A stretch of 49,997 nucleotides of DNA from a virus (Duplodnaviria; Caudoviricetes), in the IMG/VR virus record IMGVR_UViG_3300010381_000010, positions 1-49,997 of that record. One strand, given 5' to 3'. Numbering within the stretch: the first letter of the stretch is position 1; each line of letters opens with the position of its first letter. Both the position numbers and the translations under genes were made by a program. Below, in pieces: positions 2,797-44,223 of the stretch. The notes under the pieces were generated by a model. That model searched no databases. It worked only from the letters and a program-made list of their open reading frames with translations, and was not told the DNA's origin.

Positions 2797-5700
2797 TCAG
2801 TAGACTGCCCGATCTTCCTTGACTTCTCTCCGCATACGCTTCGCTGGTGCCAACGGCCGTGCCCGAGCCTTGAGCGCTGAGGAAAGGTCGATGACCATGC
2901 CGCGCTTCTTGTCCTTGAGCGCCTGAGCATTCCACTCGCGGACCTGCCGGCGGATGGCCCGCACCTCGTCCATATCACGCCGGCGCATGGCGTTGGCGTA
3001 GCGGTCGGCAAATCCCTTCTGGGCGTCCAGCCGGAACTGGTTCTGTGCCTGGATGGTATCGGCGGCCGTGTACTGGTTCGTCAGTTCGACCGGCGAGAAC
3101 CCAAGCATTTTGGCGATGGTCTCGGCCGTGGTCAGCGTCATGGGCCCGCGCTCACCTAGGCGGGGTATTGGCTTCCCTGACTGCGTGTAGGCCCCTTCGT
3201 CGTGGAGGCGCATGGCATTGGCCACGTTACGCACCACACTTGGCGTGGCCGGCGAAAGCGCCACCGCACGCCCCATATTCCCGGATTTAATCGCGCCGAG
3301 CATCTGCCCTGTTTCCTGAGCAAACGATCCGGGGATACCCAGAATAGCCCAAATGGGATTTCCTCCCTTGCTGGCCATTTCAGAGCTCACTGGCAAATCC
3401 ATGCCCAGCGATCCGGACAGATGGACACCAGAGGCGGCCGGCATGCCGTAGATGAGCAAGTCGCCCATGAGACCGCCGCCAACGGCTTTGCGTAATTTCC
3501 GTTCAAGGTCATCACCGGTCTGCCCGGTGAAGGTTGCCATGAGACTGCGATAGCCTGGCGCAGCGGCCAGTCCTCCCAAGGCCACCAAGCCAGCCATCGA
3601 GCGCAGCAAGGCCTTGCGTCCTTCTGGACCAGATTTCACCATGTGAGCCCACAGGCTCATCATGTTGTGCGAGAAGGTCCGGAACTGGTAGGCGCTGGAA
3701 GCCCACTTCCCGGCATCGGAACCACGAAACACCTCGGGCATGTTGGACCGACCGTAGACGAAATGGGCGTCATTGGTGACCATGCGAGCAAACTCGATGG
3801 CGTTGTCATGGCCGAATTTCTGGCCAGACTGGACATGGAATTGCTGCAACGTCTTGGCGTTGGTCACGTCGCCGGCCCTGGCGGCCCGATATGCGGCCAG
3901 GGCCAGGGAGGCGCGGTTGAAGCGTTCGGTCAGTTCCATGGGCAAACCCAGAACATCCATGACCCGGCCCCACGCCTTCGTGGCGGGGCTGTCCGCGACC
4001 TGTAACCGCATCTGCTCCAGGAATTGCGCCCGGGTGTCGCCGGCAGCGTAGAGCGTGTGCAGCATGTCGGCCTCATCCGGGGTGATCCGGCGCAGATTGT
4101 CGGTCTTCCCCGACCAGGAGTACTTGGCGAGATCGGTCAGATCGGTCAGGGCGGAAACGAAATTCCGGCCTGCCCTCTTGGAGTGCATGGACAGGGTCGG
4201 GACACCAGAAATGACATTCTGAGTCAGGTTGATCGCAGCGGTCGAGATACGCCCACCAAGGTACTTCACATACCCGATGGACTTGAGAAGGCTTACCGTA
4301 CGGTCAACCTTGGTTTGGTTCCCGAGCATGTCCCGCATGTAGTTGAGGGCGTAGTCGTAGAGCTTCGGCTCTTTCTTGGCCTCAAACTCGTGCATGATCT
4401 GCGTGAAGTCTTTGGCCGCCTCCATCTTGGTCAGGAAGCCATAGAGCCCGTTCATGTGGTCGTAGAAGGTGCGCTTGATGTCTCCCGTCTCGAACCCTGG
4501 AACGTTCTGTCGCTGGATAAGGTGCTGGCCAAAGCCCCGGGCCTTGAACACGTCGGCCATGGACTTGTTGAGAGCCTTCTCCACGTCGGCGCGAAGCGGC
4601 TGGCCATCGGCTCCGGTTTCGGGAAGCTGGTCCACGCCGGCCTTGAGAACCTGTTGGATGGCTTCGACCGGGATCGGGTAGGAGTAGACAGCCTCAGGAA
4701 GGTTCTCGACAGCACCGTATTCCCACTTGGCGTCCGGGTACTGCTCACGCAAGGCGGCGATCCGCTTCTTGGCCTCGGCCGCCACGCGGGCTGATCCGAT
4801 TTTGCGTTTCACGTCTATGCTCCCGCCAAGAATATTGAAATGTTCCCGGTGGAGCGTCTTGGGCCGGCCAAGCTCGTCTTTCTCGCTGGGGCTGGTGGCC
4901 CGAATGTAGAAGTCCCCTTGCCGAGAATGCGGGAAGTAATTGTGGATTTTCCCGAACGATGCGCGCAGCTTCTCGACCTCGCCGGCGTCGGCATCCGACA
5001 TACCCGCGAAACGGTTGTAGAGGTCGATGTACCCGGCATCGAGCGCCCGGCGCACATCGGCAATCCCCTTGGCCACAGCCTCATTGGAGCCAAACGCATC
5101 GCGCAGGTGTTGTTCCAGGGCGGCATAATGCTCATCGTTGAGCACCAGTTTGGTACGGCCGTTGTCGAGCTTACCGTCTGCCCTGGCCCAGTCGCCCACG
5201 CCCTCAATCTTCTTCCCGTCGATTTGCCAAATGATGTCCTGGGCCTTGGCCAGGTCGTCGCCAGTGAGATCCATGAACGATTCGGCAGTGCCTATGGCAT
5301 CCGTGACCTTGGTCGTGCGATCATCCCGGCGCCGCATCTGCCGGTCGTAGAGCTTGGCGAAAGTCGGATAGTCCTTGGCGATCCAGTGGGGCAACGACAC
5401 GAAACGGCGCAACGTGGAAATGTCGTTCTTGGTGTTCGCTTCGATCGGGACGCCCTTGAGTATTTCGTCTTTCTCTTCAATGGCTCTCTTGGCAGTGGGG
5501 ACGGCCTTGCGCAGCATGGCGTCCGGCTGGGCCTCCTGGCGCATAGCCGGGGCAGCCATGGCCATATGGCCACCGCCGCCCAGCATTTTTGCTTCGTCAG
5601 CGGAGTGGCGCGCCTCGAATGCCTGCCGCAGGAAGTCCCGAGTCTCGGCATCGGTCCAGCCGATTTTCACGCCTATCTTGTCGGAGACGGCCCGCAACCA

Positions 5701-8700
5701 TCGGGCCATGGCCGCCACGTACTTGTCGTACCAGCGGGCTTGCGACGGACTGGCTAAATCCCCGAGGGAAGTGTGCATCAACCACTCTTCGGTGACGTCG
5801 CGCCGGCCCTGGGCCGATCGCAGATCGATATCTTTGTACCCCTGCCCCTCCTTGTCGTTGGACAGCCATTCCCGGATGCCGCGGTTGTTGGCCGCATAGA
5901 TGGCATCAAGGGTGTTGCCGACATGCTGCGCCCCGCCGCGCACTTCGTCCCCCATGGACCGGGTGCGCTGGCGAAGGGCTTCTAGGCCGTCATGGCCGGC
6001 TTCGTGGATGACCGACTTGATGGCATCCTCGATGGTTTCATGGTTGCCGGCGAAAACCGTGGGGCGATCGGTGAAAACGCCTTTCGCGCCCAAATTCCCG
6101 GTGCGTTCCATATACCGGCGCAGGGCCTGGTTTTGGAGATCCTCCGGGCTGTCGTGAATGATGACATTCTCAAAAGGAGTTCCGGACAACTTGGCGCGGA
6201 GGTCGGACGCTGAGACGGAAGCGGGCTGACCCTCGTCACCCTTGCGGTACATGGCAACGCCCTTGTCCGTTTCCTTGGTCTTGACCGTCTTGAAGAACTT
6301 GTCGAAGGCCGCATTGATGGCCTCGCGTTCGGCACCCTCCGGGTACGGACGCACACTGAAGAGTTTGTATTCCGGGCGTTCGTTATTCGCGCCATAGACC
6401 AGGAAATCACTACGCCCGCTGCCGCCCTTGATGCGGTCTTCCACGTAGGAGGAAAAAGCGCGTGCGGCCAATTCATGGGGCTCGCCCCAATAGTCGGAAG
6501 CACGCCCCCGGTCCATGAGATAGGCCTCCCGACGATAGTCCGTCGGAACCTGTTTGGTTTTTTCCGTCTGCGTCCTGGCATCGTCCAGCATCTTCGCTCG
6601 AATCGCGAAGTCACGCACGGATGCGGCCAGATTATTGAAGGGCCCCGTCTTCTCGGCATTAAATCCGCTGCGGCCGCGCACTTCTTTATAGATCGCGGCC
6701 AGGCCGTCGAGTACGTCGTTGCTGTTCCGATAGGACCCAAACCGGCTTCGACGTTTTCCATCGGCGTCGTTGTTGCGCATCTCCAGAGTCAGGTTGTCGC
6801 CGCTGAGCAATTGCGCCGCCAAGGCGTCGAACCGGTCAAGCTGTTCCGGCGTCGCCGGCGCGCGCTTCCGCCCCCATTGCGTCTCCCTGGCAAGATTGGC
6901 ACGGATATCATTCAACCCCTTTTCGAGGTATCCTCGCGCCCGGCCGACGAAACGTTCGGCCTTTTCGGTGTCTTCCTTGTACTGCTCGGCCTTGTAGGCG
7001 ATGTCATGCAAGAGGTTTTCGTAGGCCTTGCGCAGTTCCTCGCGCACCTGGGACTTGTAGCTTGTCCCATGGCTCAAGAAGTCGCGTCCCGCGCTTTTTC
7101 CCGTCTTAAAAACGGTGTCGCCCCGCGCGTTCCGAACCTTCTCGGATGAGGCCTTCGTGTCCTGCCGGGCAAGATAATGGTCCAGGGCGTGAAACCACTC
7201 GTGGGCCAAGGATCCAGCGCCCGTCAACTTCGTCAGGTTGATGACGCCGTAATCTCGCTCGTAGTGCGCTTTCGCGCTGGATAGTCCGCGCCCGCGCGCC
7301 CCGAAGGCAAGAGCCAAGTCGCCGTTGAGCGAAAGTGCTTTCGGCGGGACGTCTAGAACCGCAGCGAGGTCGCCCAGGCCGTCATAGGCATGGTTCAAGA
7401 CCTCCTGCCGCTCGCCCTGGTCGTTCCACTCCCCAAACTCCACGCCGCGGAACCCATAGGCGTCCAGGAAATCCTGCCCCTTTGCCGGGCCTTCCCGCCG
7501 TGGCTCGCCTTCCCGATAGACCTTCTCAGGCCTGGCGAGAATCTCTTCGCCGAACCCGGTCTTGGTATTGAGTATCTCCTCAGCATGCTCGACCATGTAC
7601 CGCTTGGCGGCTTCCTCGGTCTCGAAGCCGTCCTTGATGACCACGGTCTTGCGGTCCGTGACTCTGCGGTAAATCTCCCAGGCGTCTCCGCGCTTGCCTA
7701 TGCGATGCTTGACGGCAACGGCCGCCAGCGGAATCGCTGCCTCGGCATCCTCTTTGGTGTCGAACTTGTATTTCCCGGTTGGAATCCGGCCCTTCTGGTC
7801 AGCGATGGACCAGTAGGTACGATCTTCGCCGGTTTTAAGATTGGCTTCCTTGACCTGTACTGCCTGAAGAGGTTTGCGCCACGCTGGCGTCGTCTCGTCC
7901 CGCCCGGGGATGCGAACCCGAGGGCCGGTTTGCGTTGCGGTGTCCTTGCGCGAACCACCTATCTTTTCACCCAATGTGAGCCCGAACTTTTCCGGCTCGA
8001 GGTCTACGTCACTTTTCGACCTTGGCATCGGAGCGGCTTCCGTCGCAGTTATCTCGGTCGCTTGAGGTTCGGTCGTCGATATCTCCGCTCCCCGCGCTTC
8101 GCCGGGCTTCACATCGCCAGGGAGAGTGGTCTCGTTTTCCTTGGTCTGCGCAAACTGATCGATAGCTGCCTTTAGACCCTTTTGAGTCTTTCCGACGCTG
8201 GGGTCGATGCCCGTGAGTTCGAAGAACGCAGCCCTTGAGTTTACGTTATCCGTGTGACGCAGAAGCCCCCAAAGGGACTTCGCATCTTTGGTGTCAACGG
8301 CACTTTTTACACGGGCGTAAGTCTCCGTTTTCTGGAAGGGGACGCCTACAGCGGATTCCGCCGCAGCGACATTGTAAGCGGTCGCCACGCCTGCGCGATC
8401 CTGCGCACCGCGCAAAGGATCACCCAGCACCTCGCCCTGGGCCTGCACCGTCTCGTAATCAAGAGACGGCCGCGCCTGCCAAATGGCTTCCGCCAACGCC
8501 GCCTTGCCCTGGCCACGCCGGACTTCGACGCCGTCTTTCCATGCCATGTTCTGGATTTCTCCAAGGGGCTTGGCCATCACCTCCTTGAGGAAGGCGCGCT
8601 TGTCCTGCGGCGGCTCCAGGGAAAATCCGGCACCGCCAGTTTGCGGCGGGTTCATCCGGTCGCGTTGCGCCTGCTCCTTGTTGGTCACGTTCGACATCAG

Positions 8701-10812
8701 CGAGTCGAGAAGATTGCCATCGGGGGGGACGAGGCCAGCACGCTTGGCCTCGTCTTCCAGGTAATCCCATGCCTGGCCAGAAGTGGTGCGTCCCGCCTTT
8801 CTGTCGGCATCGGTGACTTCACGACGTGAGTTAAATAGGTCACGCGGGGCCTTGCTGCGCAGGGCATTGAGCACTTCAGGGCCGAACGTGTCGGAGATGG
8901 ACTTAGCGTCCAGGCGTCCTCGCAGAAAATTCCAAAGCTGGGAAAGAGGCTTGGCCCCATACTCTTGCGCGGCTTGGCGTTGCGCCTGTTCCTGATAGCG
9001 ACGAACTATCTCTTCTTCAGACAGGTCCTGGCCATTATCGAAAGCGCGGGCGTCCTTGGCCGGCATCTGACCTTCAGGGGATCCTTCTCCATGATCCGTG
9101 GGAATGGCGGCATTCTCCAGGCTGCGGCCTTCGGCCTGTGTGTAATCGGCTGGATCACCGACGCGCTCGAAGCCCATCCCGGGAGGCAACGCAGCAGGGT
9201 TACGGATTCCATCCGCCCGAGCCTGCTCTTCCGGCGTCAGGACGGGCGCCGTCTCGCCAGTCAAGCCACGAAGTTCAACTTCGTAGCGGGTGCGCAAATC
9301 CTCTATCCTGGTGCGTTCCGCAGGGGTTTTCTTTTCCGCCAGTTGTGCCGTGAGCGCGTCGATACGCTTGCCCAGGGCGTTGATGCGCGACTGGTTTGCG
9401 TTGGAAGCAGGCACGCCCGGATCAATTTGGGCCTGCTCTCTCTTGGCCGCTTCGGCGTCAAGCTGCTCAAGATGCGACAGATCCTGACCGGGAATGGGTT
9501 CCTGCATCCAGTCCATCCCGCTCGCTGCTCCAGAGGCCATGTCTTGTCCCTGCCTGGGCTCAAGCATTGGGGCGGCCTGCTGCATCTGGACGCCCTCCTC
9601 CGGGGTGGCAAACGGACCACGGAACCCCTTTGGCATCGCCTGTTCCCGGGAAGCCTGATCGCCTCGGGCGCCACGCATTGCGGCCAGAAGTGCCGCTGAA
9701 TCCCCGGGGATGCCCTGGGCCGACTCGGCCGGTGGCTGCTCCATGCCAGGAATAGCCACATCGGGACGCTCGGCCGGCGGAATAATCGTGGTGGTCGGCT
9801 GCGGCTTCTCCATGTCGGCCGATTGCCTGGCAAGCTGCTCGGACAATGTGGCGGTGCCGGTCGGCCCCTGACGCGCGGGCTGGGCCTGCGCGGAAAGTTC
9901 TTCCGGACGGCCCTTGAAAAGCGCATGCGCGCCACCGAAGACAGCGCCGCCGACCATGGCGTCCGGGACATGCTCAAAGAGGGATGCGCTCGGATCGACC
10001 TGCCGTTTGCGGTTGGCATTCTCGGCCATGGTCTGACCGCCCATGAACAGACCACCTTCAGCCGCGCCACTGGCCACTTGACCCAGTTTCTTGGGCATAA
10101 CCTTTTGCGCGCCTGCGCCTAGGGCCTCGCCAAGTGGCCCCATGGCGGCGCCCACGGCGATGTTTGCGCCGGCGGCGGACCCGGCTACACGGTCTGCCAC
10201 CAAGTCCCTGGCCTGCTTGAAACGCATGTCGTCCGTGAGATTCGGATCGGTCTGGGCATAGGCGTCCTGAAAAACCGGCGTGGCCGCAAGCTGGTCATCG
10301 GCCATATCCTGAATCTCACGGTCGGCGCGTTCGGCCGCGGGCAAGGCGAATCCAGCGCCACCGCCAGCCCCGGCCGCGACCGTTGCCGCAGTGCCACCGA
10401 CTCCGGCCAGTTTCGCCAGACCGCCCATCATGCCGCCGCCGGCGGTGGCCAGGGCCATGTCCGGGGCGGCTGACAGCGCATCGGCCAACACCTTGCCGGC
10501 CGCGACGGAAGGATGCTGGATCGCATCTGTCCAAGGCATGGACTCTTGGGTCTGGAACGCCTGGGATTGCTCCGGTGCCGTCACTTCGCGATCGCGGTAG
10601 AAGTCCCGGATCGAGCCGCCAAAGGAGTCCAGGCCAAGTTTCTGGAGCCCATAGCCCATGGCTGCGCCGGTCCTGTCCAGGGCCTTGCGCAACTGCACGC
10701 CATAGTCGGTGGCCGTTTGGCCACCAGCATCGGCCGGCGCATTGAGCGCGGCGAAAGCGCTTGGATCGTAAGCCTGTGCTCTGGCCAGGATGCCGTCAAC
10801 GATGTCTGCCAT
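2797..10812 (-). CDS. Large polyvalent protein / internal virion (DNA ejection) protein with LPD5-, LPD1-, zincin- and PLxRFG-like regions
   Basis: 2671 aa; GEKIGGSRKD, GVEFGEW...LALAFGARG...SLAHEWFHALD, YW..PHE..ARAF...PYPEG.ER..IN.AFD, second HEAGH, YFPHSRQG; last gene of the virion operon. Confidence 0.8.
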   Translation of the reverse strand: MADIVDGILARAQAYDPSAFAALNAPADAGGQTATDYGVQLRKALDRTGAAMGYGLQKLGLDSFGGSIRDFYRDREVTAPEQSQAFQTQESMPWTDAIQHPSVAAGKVLADALSAAPDMALATAGGGMMGGLAKLAGVGGTAATVAAGAGGGAGFALPAAERADREIQDMADDQLAATPVFQDAYAQTDPNLTDDMRFKQARDLVADRVAGSAAGANIAVGAAMGPLGEALGAGAQKVMPKKLGQVASGAAEGGLFMGGQTMAENANRKRQVDPSASLFEHVPDAMVGGAVFGGAHALFKGRPEELSAQAQPARQGPTGTATLSEQLARQSADMEKPQPTTTIIPPAERPDVAIPGMEQPPAESAQGIPGDSAALLAAMRGARGDQASREQAMPKGFRGPFATPEEGVQMQQAAPMLEPRQGQDMASGAASGMDWMQEPIPGQDLSHLEQLDAEAAKREQAQIDPGVPASNANQSRINALGKRIDALTAQLAEKKTPAERTRIEDLRTRYEVELRGLTGETAPVLTPEEQARADGIRNPAALPPGMGFERVGDPADYTQAEGRSLENAAIPTDHGEGSPEGQMPAKDARAFDNGQDLSEEEIVRRYQEQAQRQAAQEYGAKPLSQLWNFLRGRLDAKSISDTFGPEVLNALRSKAPRDLFNSRREVTDADRKAGRTTSGQAWDYLEDEAKRAGLVPPDGNLLDSLMSNVTNKEQAQRDRMNPPQTGGAGFSLEPPQDKRAFLKEVMAKPLGEIQNMAWKDGVEVRRGQGKAALAEAIWQARPSLDYETVQAQGEVLGDPLRGAQDRAGVATAYNVAAAESAVGVPFQKTETYARVKSAVDTKDAKSLWGLLRHTDNVNSRAAFFELTGIDPSVGKTQKGLKAAIDQFAQTKENETTLPGDVKPGEARGAEISTTEPQATEITATEAAPMPRSKSDVDLEPEKFGLTLGEKIGGSRKDTATQTGPRVRIPGRDETTPAWRKPLQAVQVKEANLKTGEDRTYWSIADQKGRIPTGKYKFDTKEDAEAAIPLAAVAVKHRIGKRGDAWEIYRRVTDRKTVVIKDGFETEEAAKRYMVEHAEEILNTKTGFGEEILARPEKVYREGEPRREGPAKGQDFLDAYGFRGVEFGEWNDQGERQEVLNHAYDGLGDLAAVLDVPPKALSLNGDLALAFGARGRGLSSAKAHYERDYGVINLTKLTGAGSLAHEWFHALDHYLARQDTKASSEKVRNARGDTVFKTGKSAGRDFLSHGTSYKSQVREELRKAYENLLHDIAYKAEQYKEDTEKAERFVGRARGYLEKGLNDIRANLARETQWGRKRAPATPEQLDRFDALAAQLLSGDNLTLEMRNNDADGKRRSRFGSYRNSNDVLDGLAAIYKEVRGRSGFNAEKTGPFNNLAASVRDFAIRAKMLDDARTQTEKTKQVPTDYRREAYLMDRGRASDYWGEPHELAARAFSSYVEDRIKGGSGRSDFLVYGANNERPEYKLFSVRPYPEGAEREAINAAFDKFFKTVKTKETDKGVAMYRKGDEGQPASVSASDLRAKLSGTPFENVIIHDSPEDLQNQALRRYMERTGNLGAKGVFTDRPTVFAGNHETIEDAIKSVIHEAGHDGLEALRQRTRSMGDEVRGGAQHVGNTLDAIYAANNRGIREWLSNDKEGQGYKDIDLRSAQGRRDVTEEWLMHTSLGDLASPSQARWYDKYVAAMARWLRAVSDKIGVKIGWTDAETRDFLRQAFEARHSADEAKMLGGGGHMAMAAPAMRQEAQPDAMLRKAVPTAKRAIEEKDEILKGVPIEANTKNDISTLRRFVSLPHWIAKDYPTFAKLYDRQMRRRDDRTTKVTDAIGTAESFMDLTGDDLAKAQDIIWQIDGKKIEGVGDWARADGKLDNGRTKLVLNDEHYAALEQHLRDAFGSNEAVAKGIADVRRALDAGYIDLYNRFAGMSDADAGEVEKLRASFGKIHNYFPHSRQGDFYIRATSPSEKDELGRPKTLHREHFNILGGSIDVKRKIGSARVAAEAKKRIAALREQYPDAKWEYGAVENLPEAVYSYPIPVEAIQQVLKAGVDQLPETGADGQPLRADVEKALNKSMADVFKARGFGQHLIQRQNVPGFETGDIKRTFYDHMNGLYGFLTKMEAAKDFTQIMHEFEAKKEPKLYDYALNYMRDMLGNQTKVDRTVSLLKSIGYVKYLGGRISTAAINLTQNVISGVPTLSMHSKRAGRNFVSALTDLTDLAKYSWSGKTDNLRRITPDEADMLHTLYAAGDTRAQFLEQMRLQVADSPATKAWGRVMDVLGLPMELTERFNRASLALAAYRAARAGDVTNAKTLQQFHVQSGQKFGHDNAIEFARMVTNDAHFVYGRSNMPEVFRGSDAGKWASSAYQFRTFSHNMMSLWAHMVKSGPEGRKALLRSMAGLVALGGLAAAPGYRSLMATFTGQTGDDLERKLRKAVGGGLMGDLLIYGMPAASGVHLSGSLGMDLPVSSEMASKGGNPIWAILGIPGSFAQETGQMLGAIKSGNMGRAVALSPATPSVVRNVANAMRLHDEGAYTQSGKPIPRLGERGPMTLTTAETIAKMLGFSPVELTNQYTAADTIQAQNQFRLDAQKGFADRYANAMRRRDMDEVRAIRRQVREWNAQALKDKKRGMVIDLSSALKARARPLAPAKRMRREVKEDRAVY

Positions 10813-36941: not shown

Positions 36942-37238
36942 ATGCTTATGCAGGAAATCGCAGGTGCTATCCGAAACAGCCAGACGATCAACCTGTGGTA
37001 CAACGGAGGGATGCGAACTGTTGAGCCGCATTGCTGTGGTTATGGCACTGATGGTCAGGAGCTTCTCCGCTGCTGGCACGTATCCGGTCACAGTCAAAGC
37101 GGAAAACAACCCTGGTGGAGACTTTTTCGCCTCGACGAAATGCGCAACGTCACCATTGGAGAAGCGTTTTCCGGGACCAGACCTGGCTACAATCCACATA
37201 GCGATAAACACATCCCGAGGATCGTTGCTAAACTTTAA
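36942..37238 (+). CDS. Stand-alone WYL domain protein
   Basis: AI......Y...R.VEPH..G.......LR.W........WRLFRLD.M...F...RPGYN; GAGGAG RBS. Confidence 0.8.
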   Translation: MLMQEIAGAIRNSQTINLWYNGGMRTVEPHCCGYGTDGQELLRCWHVSGHSQSGKQPWWRLFRLDEMRNVTIGEAFSGTRPGYNPHSDKHIPRIVAKL

Positions 37239-37478: not shown

Positions 37479-37736
37479 TTAGGCCGCGGCTTCATTCATT
37501 TGAGCCAGGAATTTGGCCCGGCACGTTTCACAAATGGGTAGGCCGCCAGCCCCGCGCAGGCTCGGCCAGTGATGGCAGACGGCTTCCTGGTGGCAATACG
37601 AGCACGTGTCCGGGTAGCTACTGCCGGGGAGCTCCAGGCAGGGCCGGCAGATGATGAGCGTGTGGACGATTCGCACCCCTGGCGGATCGCTGCCGCAGAG
37701 GACGCAGTGGCAGGGCCGCGGATGACGAGCCATCAC
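37479..37736 (-). CDS. Small multi-CxxC protein
   Basis: Several CxxC pairs; coupled to the cro stop. Confidence 0.5.
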   Translation of the reverse strand: MMARHPRPCHCVLCGSDPPGVRIVHTLIICRPCLELPGSSYPDTCSYCHQEAVCHHWPSLRGAGGLPICETCRAKFLAQMNEAAA

Positions 37737-37984
37737 GCAGCCTCCCCGGGGGGTTGAGGTTCAGAAGAAGACGCAGATGGAAGGGGATGGCCATCAAGAA
37801 CGAATCTCCCGATTTTAGCGCTGACATCAACGCCACACCGGAAGCGTCCTCGTTTCCCTTTCCACGGCCGTGTGATGGACTGAACAGCCACCCCGGCGGC
37901 CTCGGCTAAGTGGCTGGCGACAGGAGCCCCGGGGGTCGAAAAATACCGCACAAGGTCTTCTTGGGTGACAATCCGGGTGTTCAT
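37733..37984 (-). CDS. Cro-like HTH repressor (apparently leaderless)
   Basis: LAEAAGVAVQSITR HTH; divergent from cI; ATG 6 nt after the -10 box. Confidence 0.7.
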   Translation of the reverse strand: MNTRIVTQEDLVRYFSTPGAPVASHLAEAAGVAVQSITRPWKGKRGRFRCGVDVSAKIGRFVLDGHPLPSASSSEPQPPGEAA

Positions 37985-37990
37985 GGGGAA

Positions 37991-38056
37991 ATTATGTAGA
38001 CACACATCTAAATTGTCAACGCAATAGCTAGATATAGATCTATAGACAATTATCTA
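37991..38056. promoter_or_regulatory. OR/PR switch: three TAGA-N6-TCTA operators and minus-strand TTGACA-N17-CATAAT promoter
   Basis: Operators 37997-38010, 38029-38042, 38043-38056; -35 at 38014-38019, -10 at 37991-37996. Confidence 0.85.
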
Positions 38057-38077
38057 CCTTTCTGCTCAAGTGAAAAT

Positions 38078-38716
38078 ATGGGATTCACACGAGACCTACT
38101 CGCGGCCATCAAAAAGGCCCATAAAGAGCGCTTTGGGGGCGTAGACTCCCGCCTTGCCGAGGCTGCTGATTATGACAAGACCGGCTTGGGTCGAATGCTA
38201 AAAAAAGAAACCCTCCCCAAGTTTGAAGCATTGGGTCGGCTGGCAGATGCATGTGGATTGCGAATTATTGAGGACGATGAGCCGGATGAGACAAAATATG
38301 TTTTTATACCTAAGGCAAGAACCAAACTGGCAGCTGGTGGAGGTTCTCTTGAAACAAGTGGTGAGATTGAAGGGTCACTTGCATTCTTGAGACACTGGAT
38401 AACAAGTAAAGGAGCTAATCCTAACAATTTGAAGGTAATGAGTGTTTTTGACGACTCTATGTCTCCAACAATAGATGATGGAGACATTGTACTTATCGAT
38501 GAAAGCGATGATGCAAAAAAACTAATTGAATACAAGGTATACGCCATCAGATGGAGAGGAGAACTTTACATAAAAAGATACAAAAAAACACCAGATGAGC
38601 ATCTTTTTGCAGGTGACAACGAACGTAAAAGACACAAGGATGTCCATGTCCCTTTTGAAGGGCAAGATGACTTTGCAATTTTAGGTAAAATTTTATGGGC
38701 AGGAAAAGAGCTTTAA
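38078..38716 (+). CDS. cI: CI-like repressor with S24 peptidase domain
   Basis: N-terminal HTH; AAGGG cleavage-site region, DSMSPTI.DGD.VLID, YIKR, ILGKILW. Confidence 0.9.
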   Translation: MGFTRDLLAAIKKAHKERFGGVDSRLAEAADYDKTGLGRMLKKETLPKFEALGRLADACGLRIIEDDEPDETKYVFIPKARTKLAAGGGSLETSGEIEGSLAFLRHWITSKGANPNNLKVMSVFDDSMSPTIDDGDIVLIDESDDAKKLIEYKVYAIRWRGELYIKRYKKTPDEHLFAGDNERKRHKDVHVPFEGQDDFAILGKILWAGKEL

Positions 38717-38747
38717 AGAGGAAAAGTAAAACATATTAAACCGGAGC

Positions 38748-39026
38748 ATGGTCATGAAGAGTCTTCTTCTTGTGCTGGCCTTGGTTTTAATCCCCGCATC
38801 TTCCTTTGCCGTCACGGACCAGCAGGTCCGCGATATGATCATCAAAGAGTCGCTTCAGTCTTACCCTGGCAACTGCCCCTGCCCCTACAACACCATGCGC
38901 AATGGACGGCGTTGTGGGGGGCGAAGTGCATACAGCCGGCCGGGCGGTCGGTCGCCGCTCTGCTACCCAAAAGATGTCACTGACAAGATGGTCAAGACTT
39001 ATCGCGAACAGCATCACGTGAAATAA
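38748..39026 (+). CDS. Exported small Cys-rich protein
   Basis: Signal peptide; YPGNCPCPY...G.RCGGRSAYSRPGG..PLCY. Confidence 0.8.
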   Translation: MVMKSLLLVLALVLIPASSFAVTDQQVRDMIIKESLQSYPGNCPCPYNTMRNGRRCGGRSAYSRPGGRSPLCYPKDVTDKMVKTYREQHHVK

Positions 39027-39046
39027 AAGCGATGCCAGGAACTTAT

Positions 39047-39793
39047 ATGCGAATTTTTACACTGCTTTTAGCGATTCTTGCTCTTTCAATCCCCGCATGG
39101 GCCGTCGGTAATGGCAACACTCAAATTGACTCGTTCAACAAAACAAAGAAACTTCTCGAGCAAAAAATCTACTACGATCACCGTCAAACGATATATTGTG
39201 GTGCTGAGTATGACGAAAGAAAGAATGTTACTCTCCCATCAGGATTTCATACGGATAAGCATGTCAAGCGGTGTGGCAGGATAGAATGGGAACATGTTGT
39301 CCCAGCTGAAAATTTTGGGAGGACATTTACAGAATGGCGCGATGGCGATCCTCAGTGCGTGGACAATAAAGGGAAAGAATTTAAAGGGCGAAACTGCGCA
39401 TCTAAGGTGAGCATGGAATATAGATACATGCAAAGCGACATGTACAATCTTTACCCGGCAATAGGTTGTGTTAATGCAGAACGGAGCAATTTTAACTTCA
39501 CCATGTTGCCATCCGCCGCATCAAGTTTTGGCTCCTGTCCCATGAAGATTGAGGAAAATAAGGTTGAGCCCCCTGCAAATGCACGCGGAAGAATCGCCAG
39601 GACATATAAATATATGCAGTGGGCGTACCCACGCTATAAAATGAGTAAAGCTCAAAACAAGCTAATGGACGCCTGGGACAAAATGTACCCCATCACTCCC
39701 TGGGAGTGCACACGGGCAAAGCGAATAGAGTCAATACAGGGCAACCGCAACCCGTTTGTCGCGGAACCATGCGCAAAACAGGGGCTACAGTAG
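39047..39793 (+). CDS. endA: Endonuclease I (EndA/Dns/Vvn family), exported
   Basis: Signal peptide; T.YCG, RIEWEHVVPA..FG, DM.NL.PAIG.VN..RSN, EPP..ARG.IAR.Y.YM, AWDK.YP...WEC.R. Confidence 0.92.
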   Translation: MRIFTLLLAILALSIPAWAVGNGNTQIDSFNKTKKLLEQKIYYDHRQTIYCGAEYDERKNVTLPSGFHTDKHVKRCGRIEWEHVVPAENFGRTFTEWRDGDPQCVDNKGKEFKGRNCASKVSMEYRYMQSDMYNLYPAIGCVNAERSNFNFTMLPSAASSFGSCPMKIEENKVEPPANARGRIARTYKYMQWAYPRYKMSKAQNKLMDAWDKMYPITPWECTRAKRIESIQGNRNPFVAEPCAKQGLQ

Positions 39794-39840
39794 AGCAGGC
39801 TGGAGGTCTATTGAAAGCCCGTTGGCGTATACTCGGACGC

Positions 39841-40098
39841 ATGTGGCTTTTCGCGATTGCCGTAATCGCAGCGGTGGCCCTCTTTGATCCGCACCAAGAG
39901 CCTACCCGACCATGGATGCATGGACGTGTAGTTGAGGTGATCAACGACCACACATTCGGGTTCCAGCAGGAGGGTAAGGATTTCTGGTTTACTATGCGGG
40001 TAGAGGGGCGGCAAAGCCTTGGGATTGGGCAGATGGTTGAAGTCCAACCAATCGCATTTACTAAGGAAGGAATAATGAAGGCGCGGGTGCGTCAATAA
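39841..40098 (+). CDS. Small membrane-anchored protein, possibly a degenerate thermonuclease-like OB fold
   Basis: Hydrophobic N-terminus; GRVVEVINDHTF resembles G.V..V.DGDT; start uncertain. Confidence 0.45.
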   Translation: MWLFAIAVIAAVALFDPHQEPTRPWMHGRVVEVINDHTFGFQQEGKDFWFTMRVEGRQSLGIGQMVEVQPIAFTKEGIMKARVRQ

Positions 40099-40129
40099 TG
40101 GGCGCAAGGATTAAAGCGGCGCTGCAAAT

Positions 40130-40555
40130 TCACCTATTAACTAATATCAAACCAATAATACAAAGGAGAACTCCGACAAAATTAAGTCTTGTAAAACTCT
40201 CCTTATAAATCAAGAACCCTATCGGAAGAAGGCAAACTGCGACGGTTATATTAGACACAATTGAAGCAACATTTATATTCCAACCCAATCTGTAGGCGAG
40301 TAAAAAACCAACCTCTAGGCCAACAACTGCGAATCCCAAAGCGACACTTGGCCAAATTGATAGTTTTAGCTGCCCAATGAGCGGTGTATTTGATGGATAA
40401 AATGGAAATAAAACTAAAGAAAAAATTATTGCTGTGATATAAGTTATAACAAGTGAAATAAATGGGTTAAATTGCTGTGGTATTGACTTTTGGAATACGT
40501 GGTAAAGAACATTTGACAAGACAACTACGCCGATAGGCAGATAATAATTTCCCAT
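40130..40555 (-). CDS. EamA/DMT family transporter (single repeat)
   Basis: 141 aa, about five TM segments; YH..QKS, GLE.GFLLAYR.GW, G.L.YKE, G..LC..GL. Confidence 0.85.
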   Translation of the reverse strand: MGNYYLPIGVVVLSNVLYHVFQKSIPQQFNPFISLVITYITAIIFSLVLFPFYPSNTPLIGQLKLSIWPSVALGFAVVGLEVGFLLAYRLGWNINVASIVSNITVAVCLLPIGFLIYKESFTRLNFVGVLLCIIGLILVNR

Positions 40556-40593
40556 TTAATGTGTCCCTTCTTTAAAATATAAGGATACAACAA

Positions 40594-41484
40594 ATGCTAG
40601 ACAACAATTTGCTAGAGGCATTTGGTCTAGTCCTTGATTGTGGCGGCTTCGAAAAGGCTGCAAAATCATTATTCATTTCTCAATCTGCTGTCTCGCAACG
40701 TATTAAACAACTCGAAGACTATATGGGACAAGTCCTTATTGTAAGGACATCCCCCCCCAGGGCCACCTCTGCAGGTAGACAGCTTTTTAAACACTACAAG
40801 CAAGTTAAGTGCCTAGAGAATGAGGTACTATCTAATGTACTCTCCGGTGCAAAAAATAAATACACAGTGCTTACTGTCGGCGTTAATGCTGACAGTCTGG
40901 CAACGTGGTTTTACGACATTATCAGCGAATTTACAATTAAAAACAATGTGTTAATCAATATAATCGTTGACGATCAAGATGAAACTCGTAAGTTACTTAA
41001 AAATGGCGAGGTAGTTGGATGCATTAGCGCAAGCAATGAACTTATTCAGGGATGCTCGTATCATTACCTCGGAAGTATGCAATATAGTTTTGCTGCAAAT
41101 AAAAACTTTTGCCAAAAATGGTTTGGGAATGGTGTCAGTTACGACAGCGCCGCAGACGCTCCAACTGTAATGTTTAACACAAAAGATAACCTCCACTATA
41201 AATTATTCAAAAATATTTTTCAAAAGATTCCACCAGAATTTAACACTCATTACATGCCCTCACCAGAGCGATTACTCGACGCCGTCTTATCTGGATTGGG
41301 TTATGGCGCGGTTCCTAATATGCAAGCGGATAAATATTTTAAAAACGGTGAACTTGTTGACATCTTTCCAGGTGTATATATCGACGTCAACCTTTACTGG
41401 CATTGCTGGAATATTGACTTCAATTATTTGAAGCAATTCACTTCTGAAATCCAAATAAAATCACGTGAACTGCTAACCCATTAA
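40594..41484 (+). CDS. argP: LysR regulator, ArgP/IciA subfamily
   Basis: GFEKAA..L.ISQSAVSQRIKQLE, VNADSLATWF, DDQ, G.V.GCIS, LYWHCW. Confidence 0.88.
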   Translation: MLDNNLLEAFGLVLDCGGFEKAAKSLFISQSAVSQRIKQLEDYMGQVLIVRTSPPRATSAGRQLFKHYKQVKCLENEVLSNVLSGAKNKYTVLTVGVNADSLATWFYDIISEFTIKNNVLINIIVDDQDETRKLLKNGEVVGCISASNELIQGCSYHYLGSMQYSFAANKNFCQKWFGNGVSYDSAADAPTVMFNTKDNLHYKLFKNIFQKIPPEFNTHYMPSPERLLDAVLSGLGYGAVPNMQADKYFKNGELVDIFPGVYIDVNLYWHCWNIDFNYLKQFTSEIQIKSRELLTH

Positions 41485-41492
41485 TATACGAG

Positions 41493-41732
41493 TCATCCAA
41501 CCTCTTCCATGTCGGTATTTTTTTCTGTTATTTTTTCAAGAGCACGCCGCAACGTCTCGACAGCTTCGTCACGTATACCAATACAGCCCTCCACTCCATT
41601 TTCATATCGAAAACGCAACAATGCCATTTTTTGTTCCCGGGAAATTATTGGTTCCATAAACTTAGCGATAAACGGGATGAGATATTCAGTCTGGGACATG
41701 GGAACCTCCATCTGTTTTTTTGCAATTATCAC
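41493..41732 (-). CDS. Small hypothetical protein
   Basis: 79 aa (alternative start at 41699 with GGAGG RBS) downstream of the radical SAM gene. Confidence 0.5.
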   Translation of the reverse strand: MIIAKKQMEVPMSQTEYLIPFIAKFMEPIISREQKMALLRFRYENGVEGCIGIRDEAVETLRRALEKITEKNTDMEEVG

Positions 41733-41761
41733 TACATCACGTTATGATAATTCCCTTTCAC

Positions 41762-42904
41762 TTACATCCGATATTTTGACAGCAACTTTTCCGCGATTAT
41801 CTCTGATATCCTACTAGGCAGACTTGCGTCTCGAAACGAAGCCAACTCATTCTGTTTTTCTGTTTCATATATACTCCTACATTCACACTCTAAGTTTAAA
41901 ATATCTTCAATACTTTTGTGAACATTAAAATTATTTATTGCTTGATACAATTCACCATTACACCGATAGCAATTGCTGACGTAAAGCTTCGGTGTTGGGT
42001 AAAATTCAAACCCACCAATACGTAATTCAAAGTCAAGTTTTTTGATTAAATTTTGCGCTTCAATTACGATATCTCTCAGCATCCACCCGCTTGGTATCTG
42101 GTAAATTCCTTCTGAATAAAAATAATCTACCAACGTCCACTTTTGTATACTTGTCGGCTCCAGCGAAACAACATCAGTCAGCCCATTTATCTTTTCCAAA
42201 CTCGATATTACATCAGCAATTGATTCGTTTATTGTCAAAAAAAGTGGCTTTACTGTTATATACGTCAACAACTTAAATTTATTTTTTTTAACAACTTTTG
42301 CTGCACGAGCATAATCTTCAAATGAGAACCCTTTGTTTATACAAAGGTCACGAACCACTTCAGAACTTGACTCGAGACCGATCCCGATTTCAACCGATGT
42401 ATTCTTCAATAAATTTTGCACCACACTCATTGATTCTTCTGTAACAAATTCAGGCCTACTTTCTATGATGACATGCTTTATTTTACTATTGGAATCAATA
42501 ATCTTTAATATTTCCGAGAAATCATAGTCACGTATTTCTTCGCGGCTCAACAATGATCCAGCGTTATAAATACACACAATCGGGTATTCTTTAAAATCAT
42601 ATTTTTCATAGGCACTTTTGAACTGCTGAAGGTGATATCCTTCTGGCATGAGATCGCCTTTTGTTGTGCCGTGGAAATGGCCACACATGGAGCAGCCTCC
42701 ATAATCTAGTTTACACCACGAGCATCCTATACCTCTCAGATAAAATATTATCCTTTTCACCTGCTTACCATCTAAGTACCCTGTACTTATTGATGATCCT
42801 GCTATCTTAGTCAATTCATAGTTATTAGATGAATACGGAGAAATATTCTTAAGCTTTTGAATCATATGAGTTAATACGCGATGTTCATTAGTTATCGCTT
42901 CCAT
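41762..42904 (-). CDS. Radical SAM enzyme, RaSEA/TIGR01210-like
   Basis: LRGIGCSW....GGCSMCG, IYNAGSLL, IESRPEFVTEE, VEIGIGLES......INKG, KP.FL, TLV, SNCYRCN...CEC; GGAGAGG RBS. Confidence 0.8.
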   Translation of the reverse strand: MEAITNEHRVLTHMIQKLKNISPYSSNNYELTKIAGSSISTGYLDGKQVKRIIFYLRGIGCSWCKLDYGGCSMCGHFHGTTKGDLMPEGYHLQQFKSAYEKYDFKEYPIVCIYNAGSLLSREEIRDYDFSEILKIIDSNSKIKHVIIESRPEFVTEESMSVVQNLLKNTSVEIGIGLESSSEVVRDLCINKGFSFEDYARAAKVVKKNKFKLLTYITVKPLFLTINESIADVISSLEKINGLTDVVSLEPTSIQKWTLVDYFYSEGIYQIPSGWMLRDIVIEAQNLIKKLDFELRIGGFEFYPTPKLYVSNCYRCNGELYQAINNFNVHKSIEDILNLECECRSIYETEKQNELASFRDASLPSRISEIIAEKLLSKYRM

Positions 42905-43246
42905 AGCATTACCTCTCCCTAAAGTTGCATCACCCGTTGATGGGTATTGTTTATGTTCATGCCCTTGGGAAATCAAATCAGTAGTTTTTATACACCATTA
43001 GCAATTCTTATTTCATATTGAACAAATCAGTGTTTCTTGAACAAGTACTCATGCTAACCACCCGATATTATAATGGTATGACTAGACGCTCTGTTTGAAA
43101 GCGCCTCGTCCTCAGCAGCCAACGCTTCGGATGGATACACATCCACCCGAGCACTCTCCCTATCCCGTCCATCGCCTCGTCAACCTAGCTCATAGTCTCC
43201 CGACAGCGCACAATTATACGCAAGTTATCATGTATTTTCAGTATAT

Positions 43247-43295
43247 TAGATTTATATCTATTAATTATTGACAATTCTAGACTTACGTCTATTAT
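43247..43295 (+). promoter_or_regulatory. OL/PL: two TAGA-N6-TCTA operators and TTGACA-N16-TATTAT promoter
   Basis: TAGATTTATATCTA 43247-43260, TAGACTTACGTCTA 43278-43291; -35 at 43268-43273, -10 at 43290-43295. Confidence 0.85.
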
Positions 43296-43504
43296 TTGCA
43301 TCAACGACGCCCACCACGAACCGAACGCACCGCGCCAATCTGGCCGGAGCCAGTAGCGAACGGGTGGGCGGGCCGGAACCAAGCCAGACGCCAAGAGCCG
43401 GATAACCGGGATGACGAGCCCAGCCAGAGGCGGGACGCTCCCAAAGGGACGGAAGGACGCAAAAGGCGAGGGGAAGGCAGGTATTAAGGCTAATTGAAGA
43501 ACTG

Positions 43505-43542
43505 AACTTGTAAGGAATCCTTACAGGTTGGCTCTTTGAAAA
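43505..43542 (+). promoter_or_regulatory. Hairpin plus boxA-like antitermination element
   Basis: AACTTGTAAGG-aat-CCTTACAGGTT followed by GCTCTTTGAAAA. Confidence 0.5.
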
Positions 43543-43785
43543 CTTGGCCCCTTACGCAGCAAGAGCGAGCGCACAACCGCGTGGACCAGCGAGCGCAGGG
43601 GCAGTAATACGGGGCCGGCACGAGTCGGTCCCGGTCGGGATTCAACGCGGTGCCACACGAATTTGTTGTAATTGGGACATCGCGTTGAAACTCGACCTTA
43701 TCAATACTCACGTGTATCATCATTTAACCTGAGCCGGATTTTTCCGACGTTTACCTATGGGCGGTTCCAAAAAAGCGAGGACATC

Positions 43786-44223
43786 ATGGATTTTGAGATA
43801 GCTATGGAACGCATCCAAAGCATTACGGGGTGCCGAACGCAAACGGAACTTGGAAATATCCTAGGCATCAAACAGTCCAGCATATCCGACGCTAAACGAC
43901 GGCAGGTAATCCCCGACGGCTGGCTCGTTACGTTGTACAGGCGTTATGGCGTGAATCCGTCCTGGATACTAGGTGATGCTGAATCCCCCTATCTGGTTGA
44001 GGGAGTTAACCCCAAAACACCTGCTGCTGAGATTAACGCTACATCTGCTCCTCTTTCCAAACAAAAATCAAACCCCACGACACGGGAACTTCTGACAGCT
44101 CTACGCGCTCAACTCGGCGACAGCTACGAAATCCTCATCGTTCCTGCTGGGACCACAATAACCGTCCCGCCCCACACGAAAACTCCCATTCATACTGATG
44201 ATGATATAGACGTAGCTCAATAG
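43786..44223 (+). CDS. Phage CI-like HTH protein (no peptidase domain)
   Basis: RI...TG.RTQ.EL...LGIKQSSISDAKRR..IP..WL..L...G.NP.WI..G; GAGG RBS. Confidence 0.85.
   Translation: MDFEIAMERIQSITGCRTQTELGNILGIKQSSISDAKRRQVIPDGWLVTLYRRYGVNPSWILGDAESPYLVEGVNPKTPAAEINATSAPLSKQKSNPTTRELLTALRAQLGDSYEILIVPAGTTITVPPHTKTPIHTDDDIDVAQ

Follow-up and report, generated by a model that had tools for sequence, protein, structure and literature searches.

A mobile cassette built on a RaSEA-paralogue radical SAM enzyme and an EamA membrane protein, with free arginine as a candidate substrate

Introduction

RaSEA is the partner of ArcS in archaeosine synthesis. What would a relative of this radical S-adenosylmethionine (SAM) enzyme do between the repressor genes of a provirus? 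The question is raised by a stretch of 49,997 nucleotides (hereafter the window), positions 1 to 49,997 of record IMGVR_UViG_3300010381_000010, an IMG/VR provirus that is 75% complete and also encodes portal, capsid, terminase, RecT and MucR proteins. An initial annotation, made from the sequence alone, had described an AT-rich block in the immunity region with four open reading frames (ORFs), encoding a RaSEA-like radical SAM protein, a small protein, an ArgP-like regulator and an EamA protein. This description held: an ORF check verified all four at their positions, the GC content is 0.36–0.39 across 40001–43000 as compared with about 0.6 for most of the window, and CI-type genes flank the block, an S24 CI-type repressor gene (38078–38716) on one side and a second, CI-like helix-turn-helix (HTH) gene on the other.

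Our analysis indicates that the block is a real, conserved cassette that moves between genomes. At its core is a RaSEA paralogue not described so far, which probably works like an amino-acid-modifying enzyme and not like an archaeosine synthase. As to the chemistry, we favour, with about an even chance of being right, an oxygen-independent oxidation or cyclisation of free arginine, the product being an exported antimetabolite. The genes are as follows.

41762..42904, minus strand: RaSEA-paralogue radical SAM enzyme, 380 aa (TIGR01210, 210.8 bits; CX9CX2C and four C-terminal cysteines)
41493..41699 (ATG start, 68 aa) or 41493..41732 (GTG start, 79 aa), minus strand: small ORF, function unassigned, conserved in ArgP-bearing loci
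40594..41484, plus strand: LysR-type regulator of the ArgP/LysG family (TIGR03298, above cut-off)
40130..40555, minus strand: single-domain EamA/DMT membrane protein, 141 aa, predicted exporter (PF00892)
43786..44223, plus strand: CI-like HTH gene travelling with the cassette (PF07022)

The enzyme belongs to a clade separate from archaeal RaSEA

TIGR01210, the family named in the initial annotation, is the best NCBIfam match of the enzyme, with a score just below the equivalog cut-off of 212.15; the next family, TIGR01212, reaches 29 bits, and the match to PF04055 is weak. Archaeal members score 323–383 bits, placing the enzyme some 120–170 bits lower, and bacterial paralogues 173–244 bits, some of them above the cut-off, so that the cut-off does not split the groups cleanly. 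The motif hallmarks were all found: C61-x9-C71-x2-C74, ESRPE, GLES..INKG and C312/C315/C340/C342 are invariant or nearly so in 42 homologues. With RaSEA, its closest family, the enzyme has in common the wide CXnCX2C motif, ESRPE, GLE..NKG and the C-terminal cysteines, and the full set of cluster and C-terminal cysteines (C61, C71, C74, C312, C315, C340 and C342) is shared with the archaeal rows. The enzyme is 74–76% identical to its Solidesulfovibrio homologues. A 404-aa version starting at a TTG was rejected in favour of the ATG at 42904, because close homologues begin there and the predicted regulatory boxes described below abut the TTG. Sequence searches found no solved relatives. The structural model (pLDDT 90.5) matched radical SAM barrels, with Elp3 as the best Foldseek match and QueL (Z 16.5) and BioB (Z 16.0) tied in VIA; the fold searches thus returned generic barrels only.

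A RaSEA profile retrieved 675 clusters (50% identity) at E<=1e-30, archaeal ones included. We built a tree from 187 sequences dereplicated to 80 (107 dropped), in which the archaeal rows are Thermoplasmatota and metagenome rows and which holds no biochemically tested RaSEA. The window enzyme falls into a 13-row clade (SH-aLRT 99) that extends from Desulfovibrionaceae to Clostridia, including the Clostridium megaplasmid pSOL1, and 12 of its 13 rows have EamA. In its sister clade (99), as in most of the other bacterial branches, the enzyme is accompanied by a stand-alone B3/4 gene. The 33 archaeal rows form a clade of their own (96), and the 80 archaeal loci examined have neither EamA nor B3/4 neighbours within 2 kb. 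Deeper nodes are weak; a topology forcing the EamA clade together with the archaeal rows was nevertheless rejected (p-AU 0.006; 24 rows, LG+G4). Thus, the proposed kinship with RaSEA holds at the level of the closest family, and membership in the archaeal branch does not.

Seven residues, R51, H76, C111, N114, E249, S252 and E300, are kept in 13/13 rows of the EamA clade, 13–15 of the 15 rows of the B3/4 clade and 7/7 rows linked to nonribosomal peptide synthetases (NRPSs), and are replaced in most or all of the 33 archaeal rows. A longer, 14-residue signature is identical in the window enzyme, the pSOL1 enzyme and those of loci L034, L009 and L014, and differs at one site in L015 and L025. 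Since the EamA-, B3/4- and NRPS-linked groups share this signature, their neighbours should inform on one chemistry. Net charge did not separate bacterial from archaeal rows.

These data bear on the idea that the enzyme modifies tRNA or phage DNA in the style of archaeosine or 7-deazaguanine. TIGR01210 as the closest family, Elp3 as the best Foldseek match and the bacterial paralogues above the cut-off speak for it. However, the separate clade, the replaced archaeal signature residues and an exporter as the fixed partner argue otherwise, as do the genomes: the provirus has no match to TGT or QueC (controls positive in 14/14 and 13/14 genomes), and archaeal TGT (TIGR00432) stays below the cut-off in all five host genomes and above it in four controls. 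The earlier statement that the region lacks arcS, tgt and que genes is borne out for TGT and QueC; arcS was not searched with a model of its own. Whereas RaSEA works with ArcS, the partners of this enzyme are EamA, ArgP, B3/4 and NRPS genes. We regard a nucleic-acid substrate as very unlikely.

EamA is the older partner, and the cassette is mobile cargo

We gathered 106 loci from genomes and metagenomes and four plasmid regions in addition to the archaeal loci (handles beginning with L denote loci). Counting the window, 18 loci have EamA behind the enzyme. In 12 of them the distance is below 300 bp with nothing between, and in the other six (the window, L001, L003, L004, L027 and L028) the small ORF and an opposite-strand argP intervene. 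The genes therefore co-occur elsewhere, as all four in five further loci and as enzyme plus EamA in 12 more. The profiles used to detect neighbours derive from the very proteins counted here; Pfam at its cut-off confirmed 4/5 EamA and 15/15 B3/4 proteins tested. These results show that EamA is the stable, older partner of the enzyme and that ArgP is a late addition in one lineage. The earlier proposal that EamA stands in for a LysE-type exporter beside ArgP does not agree with this history, nor with the position of the predicted boxes before the enzyme gene.

The window EamA passes PF00892 (33.5 against 28.2 bits) as one 141-aa domain and is 42–72% identical to 12 other enzyme-linked copies aligned; no solved relatives were found by sequence. 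ArgP passes both TIGR03298 (334.5 against 273.55) and PRK03635 (343 against 197), its best PDB matches are Rv1985c and LysG, and the cassette copy is the sole ArgP above the cut-off in 3/3 host genomes searched. The small ORF recurs in the five other ArgP-bearing loci at 34–46% identity, with the methionine at 41699 invariant and a C-terminus shorter in the window than in the relatives. Evidence for its coding is weak because the third-position excess is modest, and neither Pfam nor the named Atlas families gave a match. In a related contig, an additional base lies between its GTG and ATG.

The enzyme is rare: it occurs in 3 of 25 Solidesulfovibrio genomes, and of 401 genomes sampled across the order only one, the centre genome itself, has it. 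Relatives carry the cassette next to an integrase gene (L003), next to tRNA-Thr (L004) or near tRNA-Leu (L001), and homologues of the CI-like HTH gene at 43786..44223 lie upstream of the enzyme in L003, L004, L027 and L028. The enzyme–EamA pair is also carried by the megaplasmid pSOL1 of C. acetobutylicum ATCC 824 (CA_P0173/CA_P0174; 47.5% identity). No viral relatives were found in IMG/VR scans or INPHARED (50,697 phage records), although such searches may leave out the window's own record and close ones. One contig, which comes from another study and is likely a related prophage, carries 37498–43544 with 210 differences and replaced flanks. Because the cassette occurs on islands and pSOL1 and not in the viral collections, we consider it mobile cargo acquired by the phage; the supposition that it is specifically lysogen-borne is not upheld.

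Could the product, whatever the favoured arginine chemistry yields, serve anti-phage defence or competition between lysogens instead of general antibiosis or arginine overflow? This purpose would be compatible with that chemistry, and it is suggested by the immunity-region position and by the AEP-TOTE/RT, AbiJ/Abi_C, PRTase-CE and RT genes that adjoin L003 and L004. RaSEA paralogues fused to TIR (two) or Sir2 (one) domains, P0146, P0178 and P0204, form a further possible link to defence, the TIR ones lying in a B3/4-linked branch. However, PADLOC gave no match for the four cassette genes, islands collect unrelated cargo, the regulation is of a nutrient type, and the fused Sir2 domain scores best as a CobB-type deacylase. 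We consider a defence purpose quite unlikely.

Predicted ArgP boxes precede the enzyme gene

The upstream region of the enzyme gene and the gap between eamA and argP contain the following features.

42997..43011, minus strand: upstream LysR-type box in a conserved non-coding stretch, T-N11-A dyad, predicted ArgP recognition site
42977..42991, minus strand: second, weaker LysR-type box, predicted activation site, 20 bp downstream of the first and ending 72 bp before the enzyme ATG
40556..40593, no strand: 38-bp gap between the divergent eamA and argP, about 330–440 bp in relatives

Across the six ArgP-bearing loci, a conserved island lies upstream of the enzyme gene, with 11 of 20 columns invariant at 43003–42984 as compared with 0–4 further up. 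It consists of two T-N11-A boxes 20 bp apart, an arrangement known from the regulatory and activation sites of LysR proteins (PMC11495319). The tandem pattern occurs in the window and 4/5 relatives (not L001), 72–78 bp ahead of the ATG, with no further occurrence in 3.09 Mb of sequence, and the upstream box matches exactly once in the window, where 0.01 matches would be expected; both patterns were built after these sites had been seen, and these counts are not blind tests. The 15-base pattern of the upstream box also lies just before argP in four relatives. The window's eamA/argP gap lacks the box and contains overlapping weak sigma-70-like matches on both strands. Since the conserved boxes precede the enzyme gene and the gap has none, ArgP is more likely to control the enzyme than eamA, which may have its own weak promoter or depend on read-through. 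ArgP likely switches on the enzyme gene through the predicted tandem boxes. The arrangement resembles ArgP-ArgO and LysG-LysE in that an ArgP-family regulator diverges from a small exporter gene, but differs in that the exporter is EamA and not LysE, the boxes lie before the enzyme gene, and 12 of the 18 EamA loci have no ArgP.

As to expression, the C. acetobutylicum genes CAP0173 and CAP0174, identified by gene order before repL, are expressed at 0.08–0.40 and 0.15–1.63 mRNA per cell, respectively, and co-vary (r=0.99) over nine conditions (PMC4845359 supplement). For the window's source sample, RNA-library contigs cover structural genes and cassette at equal flat depth and thus give no evidence of expression.

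Neighbours of same-signature enzymes point to a guanidino amino acid

A frequent neighbour in the related branches is the stand-alone B3/4 gene, present in 17 of the 25 other rows of a 38-row bacterial clade (four of the remainder are cut by contig ends and four lack it); the L038 match, an opposite-strand overlapping frame, is counted but uncertain. For the two B3/4 proteins tested, the best PDB match was CtdA (E 3e-22 and 2e-20), which removes canavanine from tRNA-Arg (PMC10018355; PMC12449066). At the CtdA pocket positions N105, G116, E118, C166 and Q173 (numbering from PMC12449066), 19 of the 21 enzyme-linked B3/4 proteins aligned read L, G, Y, T and D, and L006 and L007 keep N, G, E and C. 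With four pocket residues changed in 19/21, a substrate other than canavanine is likely. tRNA deacylases mark clusters making non-canonical amino acids (PMC13149037).

Seven loci are NRPS clusters, and we extracted ten adenylation (A) domains from five of them. Four of the ten read D-P-Q-D at pocket positions 235/236/239/278, numbered by the usual convention, and their gene adjoins the enzyme or its B3/4 gene; this reading presumably resembles the capreomycidine code. The printed alignment of CmnG, which loads capreomycidine (PMC11253843), shows the same D-P-Q-D at 4/4 comparable positions, four being all that are comparable of the ten code positions. A wider scan for NRPS-type members (23 loci) gave no new independent D-P-Q-D locus.

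We also examined 150 distant representatives and scanned the 24 long or fused proteins among them. Fusions to VioD/GntC-type cyclase domains (244 and 233 bits; best PDB match 8fft) were seen in two paralogues and a fusion to an ArgZ-like dihydrolase domain in one, with GNAT, TIR, Sir2, receiver or ABC domains in others; one fused GNAT domain is more like those of GphF/CurA than like the canavanine acetyltransferase. A separate VioD search in five genomes hosting NRPS- or B3/4-linked enzymes gave three top loci, two of which lie directly after another RaSEA paralogue in NRPS/polyketide synthase (PKS) clusters. VioD and GntC act on hydroxy-arginine (PMC10055224). A VioC search of five genomes had no match, but neither had its controls, and it is uninformative. 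VioD-like genes (228–241 bits) are located elsewhere in two Solidesulfovibrio genomes.

Two side observations concern these cyclases. L217:5253–7360 and L218:4296–6400, from two Aminicenantes genomes, carry a different RaSEA paralogue followed by a GntC/VioD-like pyridoxal phosphate (PLP) gene (301 and 307 bits against GntC) in NRPS/PKS clusters, and L218 also has a NodU-like carbamoyltransferase gene. A pair of VioD-like genes (241 bits) occurs in Solidesulfovibrio alcoholivorans (L214:5494–7480), and the examined copy, which adjoins an Arg/Lys/Orn ABC binding-protein gene, is a possible partner in trans.

Same-signature archaeal operons include agmatinase-like genes in two loci (below cut-off), and ArgG, an ornithine racemase-like and an agmatine deiminase-like gene occur in single loci. 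These independent hints, from CtdA-like B3/4, CmnG-like A domains and cyclases to agmatinase-like genes, converge on a guanidino amino acid. The substrate class proposed by the initial annotation, a basic-amino-acid adduct, is therefore retained in part: a basic amino acid is likely, and the neighbours favour free arginine over a lysine adduct or a nucleic acid.

The same make-and-export logic could apply to another basic amino acid or conjugate, such as lysine, ornithine, agmatine or the product of an acyl-CoA/AMP ligase. ArgP/LysG regulators respond to Lys, Arg and His (PMC11495319), and PaaK-like ligases, PLP decarboxylases, threonine-synthase-like and KamA-like genes flank same-signature members. 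However, CtdA, CmnG, VioD/GntC, ArgZ, agmatinase and ArgG all indicate a guanidino group, and such a substrate appears quite unlikely.

The main rival keeps arginine but changes the reaction: a RaSEA-type lyase would oxidise free arginine, homoarginine or canavanine beside the guanidino nitrogen and cleave it there into guanidine and a semialdehyde, much as RaSEA frees archaeosine from its lysine adduct with a piperideine-carboxylate as co-product. The compound itself would then be the signal for ArgP, and either it or guanidine would leave the cell through EamA. B3/4 would act as an additional resistance gene, making the cassette a detoxification or catabolic unit. Homoarginine has the same N6-amidino-lysine arm, which counts for a lyase. 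So do the conversion of preQ0-Lys to archaeosine by RaSEA (PMC11298593), the frequency of two-gene cassettes without further enzyme, and the CtdA-type pocket residues kept in the B3/4 proteins of L006 and L007. CtdA adjoins an operon for the breakdown of canavanine, and an activity forming guanidine from canavanine anaerobically is described as uncharacterised (PMC10018355); known guanidine-forming routes need O2 (PMC12623156). However, no guanidine riboswitch reached the gathering score in 13 loci or the window, no Gdx/SugE-type exporter was seen among the clustered neighbours, and many hosts are sediment organisms. In addition, a destroying enzyme would leave the place in NRPS operons beside a CmnG-like A domain, and the cyclase fusions, unexplained. 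The canavanine system of P. canavaninivorans likewise pairs a stand-alone B3/4 deacylase with a neighbouring enzyme for an arginine analogue, but there the enzyme is a PLP gamma-lyase and not a radical SAM protein, the pocket is changed in 19/21 of the present proteins, no guanidine riboswitch is seen, and the window has no B3/4 gene. We judge the lyase unlikely, though the most probable of the alternatives.

Other features of the window and of related loci

Further lower-GC cargo in the window, at 38748–40098, comprises a secreted 92-aa Cys-rich protein, an endonuclease I homologue (PF04231) and a small membrane ORF. A stand-alone WYL-like domain ORF at 36942–37238, on the strand opposite to the early genes, is replaced in the related contig, and a 2671-aa protein at 2797–10812 carries an LPD1 polyvalent-protein domain. 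Among other loci, archaeal operons of Woesearchaeota, Aenigmatarchaeota and Methanosarcinales (L236, L237, L240, L241, L242 and L021) combine a PaaK-like ligase, a same-signature radical SAM enzyme and a threonine-synthase-like enzyme, often adding agmatinase-like, PLP aminotransferase and decarboxylase genes. L012, L039, L047, L231 and L232 share a recurring operon of radical SAM, B3/4, small thioredoxin-like and prenyltransferase-toroid/CHAT genes. A gut Clostridia cluster (L009–L011) holds a PLP decarboxylase, MetK, an ornithine racemase-like protein, a PaaK-like ligase, a B12 radical SAM protein, the RaSEA-paralogue enzyme, a methyltransferase, B3/4 and a class I tRNA synthetase. Distant paralogues also occur in a Bacillus plasmid acyl-carrier/AsnB cluster and a Streptomyces plasmid heptose-type cluster (L114–L116).

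Discussion

Our favoured reading starts from the gene identities, their co-occurrence, the tree position, the conserved boxes and the shared residue signature; from these we infer the substrate, the reaction, ArgP binding and its effector, export and toxicity. Under arginine-rich conditions, ArgP would activate the enzyme gene via the tandem boxes. The 5′-deoxyadenosyl radical would abstract a side-chain hydrogen of free L-arginine, a one-electron oxidation would follow, in which a site on the four C-terminal cysteines may take part, and capture by water or a guanidino nitrogen would give hydroxy-arginine or a capreomycidine/enduracididine-type arginine. EamA would export the product, export serving as self-protection in the window's clade. 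In sister clades, tRNA-Arg would be shielded from the product by a CtdA-like deacylase co-transcribed with the enzyme, and the product would be a building block for NRPS modules. The enzyme would thus do without O2 what VioC or GntB do ahead of VioD or GntC (PMC10055224).

Counting for this arginine oxidation or cyclisation are the shared signature, the B3/4 neighbours, D-P-Q-D, the cyclase links, the guanidino neighbours, ArgP with its boxes and the co-variation on pSOL1. Several points weigh against it. The known reaction of RaSEA is C–N cleavage, which favours the guanidine lyase. ArgP is present in only six of the 18 EamA loci, B3/4 occurs only as PheT in 4/5 host genomes searched, and the signature residues were chosen by conservation, with their active-site placement predicted. 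As to the A domains, the comparison with CmnG covers only four of ten code positions, the four D-P-Q-D loci count as about one event because all lie in one five-row subclade, the L014 A domain reads differently, and CmnG ranked 27th with the full-length query. The cyclase-linked paralogues belong to other branches and have other signatures, all cyclase scores are below the VioD/GntC cut-offs, and PLP genes of this kind are also found where the enzyme is absent (L219). Finally, no cyclase, deacylase or NRPS gene lies beside the window enzyme, and no PLP cyclase beside its clade.

Compared with VioC-VioD, GntB-GntC and MppP/Q/R, the likeness lies in the predicted product type, the cyclases of distant paralogues and the CmnG-like A domain beside same-signature enzymes. 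The difference is that the first step would be taken by a radical SAM enzyme and not an O2-dependent one, and the window has no cyclase or NRPS. We tentatively extend the reading, at somewhat less than an even chance, to the large non-archaeosine RaSEA branch: it may be an O2-independent route of anaerobes from arginine to hydroxy- or cyclic arginine, supplying NRPSs together with a new tRNA-Arg deacylase subfamily or, as here, forming a minimal arginine-triggered make-and-export cassette.

In the literature searched, with most subscription papers, including the original RaSEA paper, lying outside it, we found no account of bacterial RaSEA paralogues, of a radical SAM arginine cyclase or of a function for CA_P0173. 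The term 'TIGR01210' was absent from the same literature. A further outcome of the analysis is a candidate tRNA deacylase subfamily whose pocket is changed. Both the oxidation or cyclisation and the lyase reading are directly testable, because the same enzyme–exporter pair is present on pSOL1 (CA_P0173/CA_P0174) and expressed. The enzyme would represent the first small-molecule role for bacterial RaSEA paralogues and a new radical SAM reaction on arginine. A lyase would be a missing anaerobic source of guanidine. If arginine is oxidised or cyclised, the result would be an O2-free route to building blocks of peptides of the viomycin/teixobactin type.

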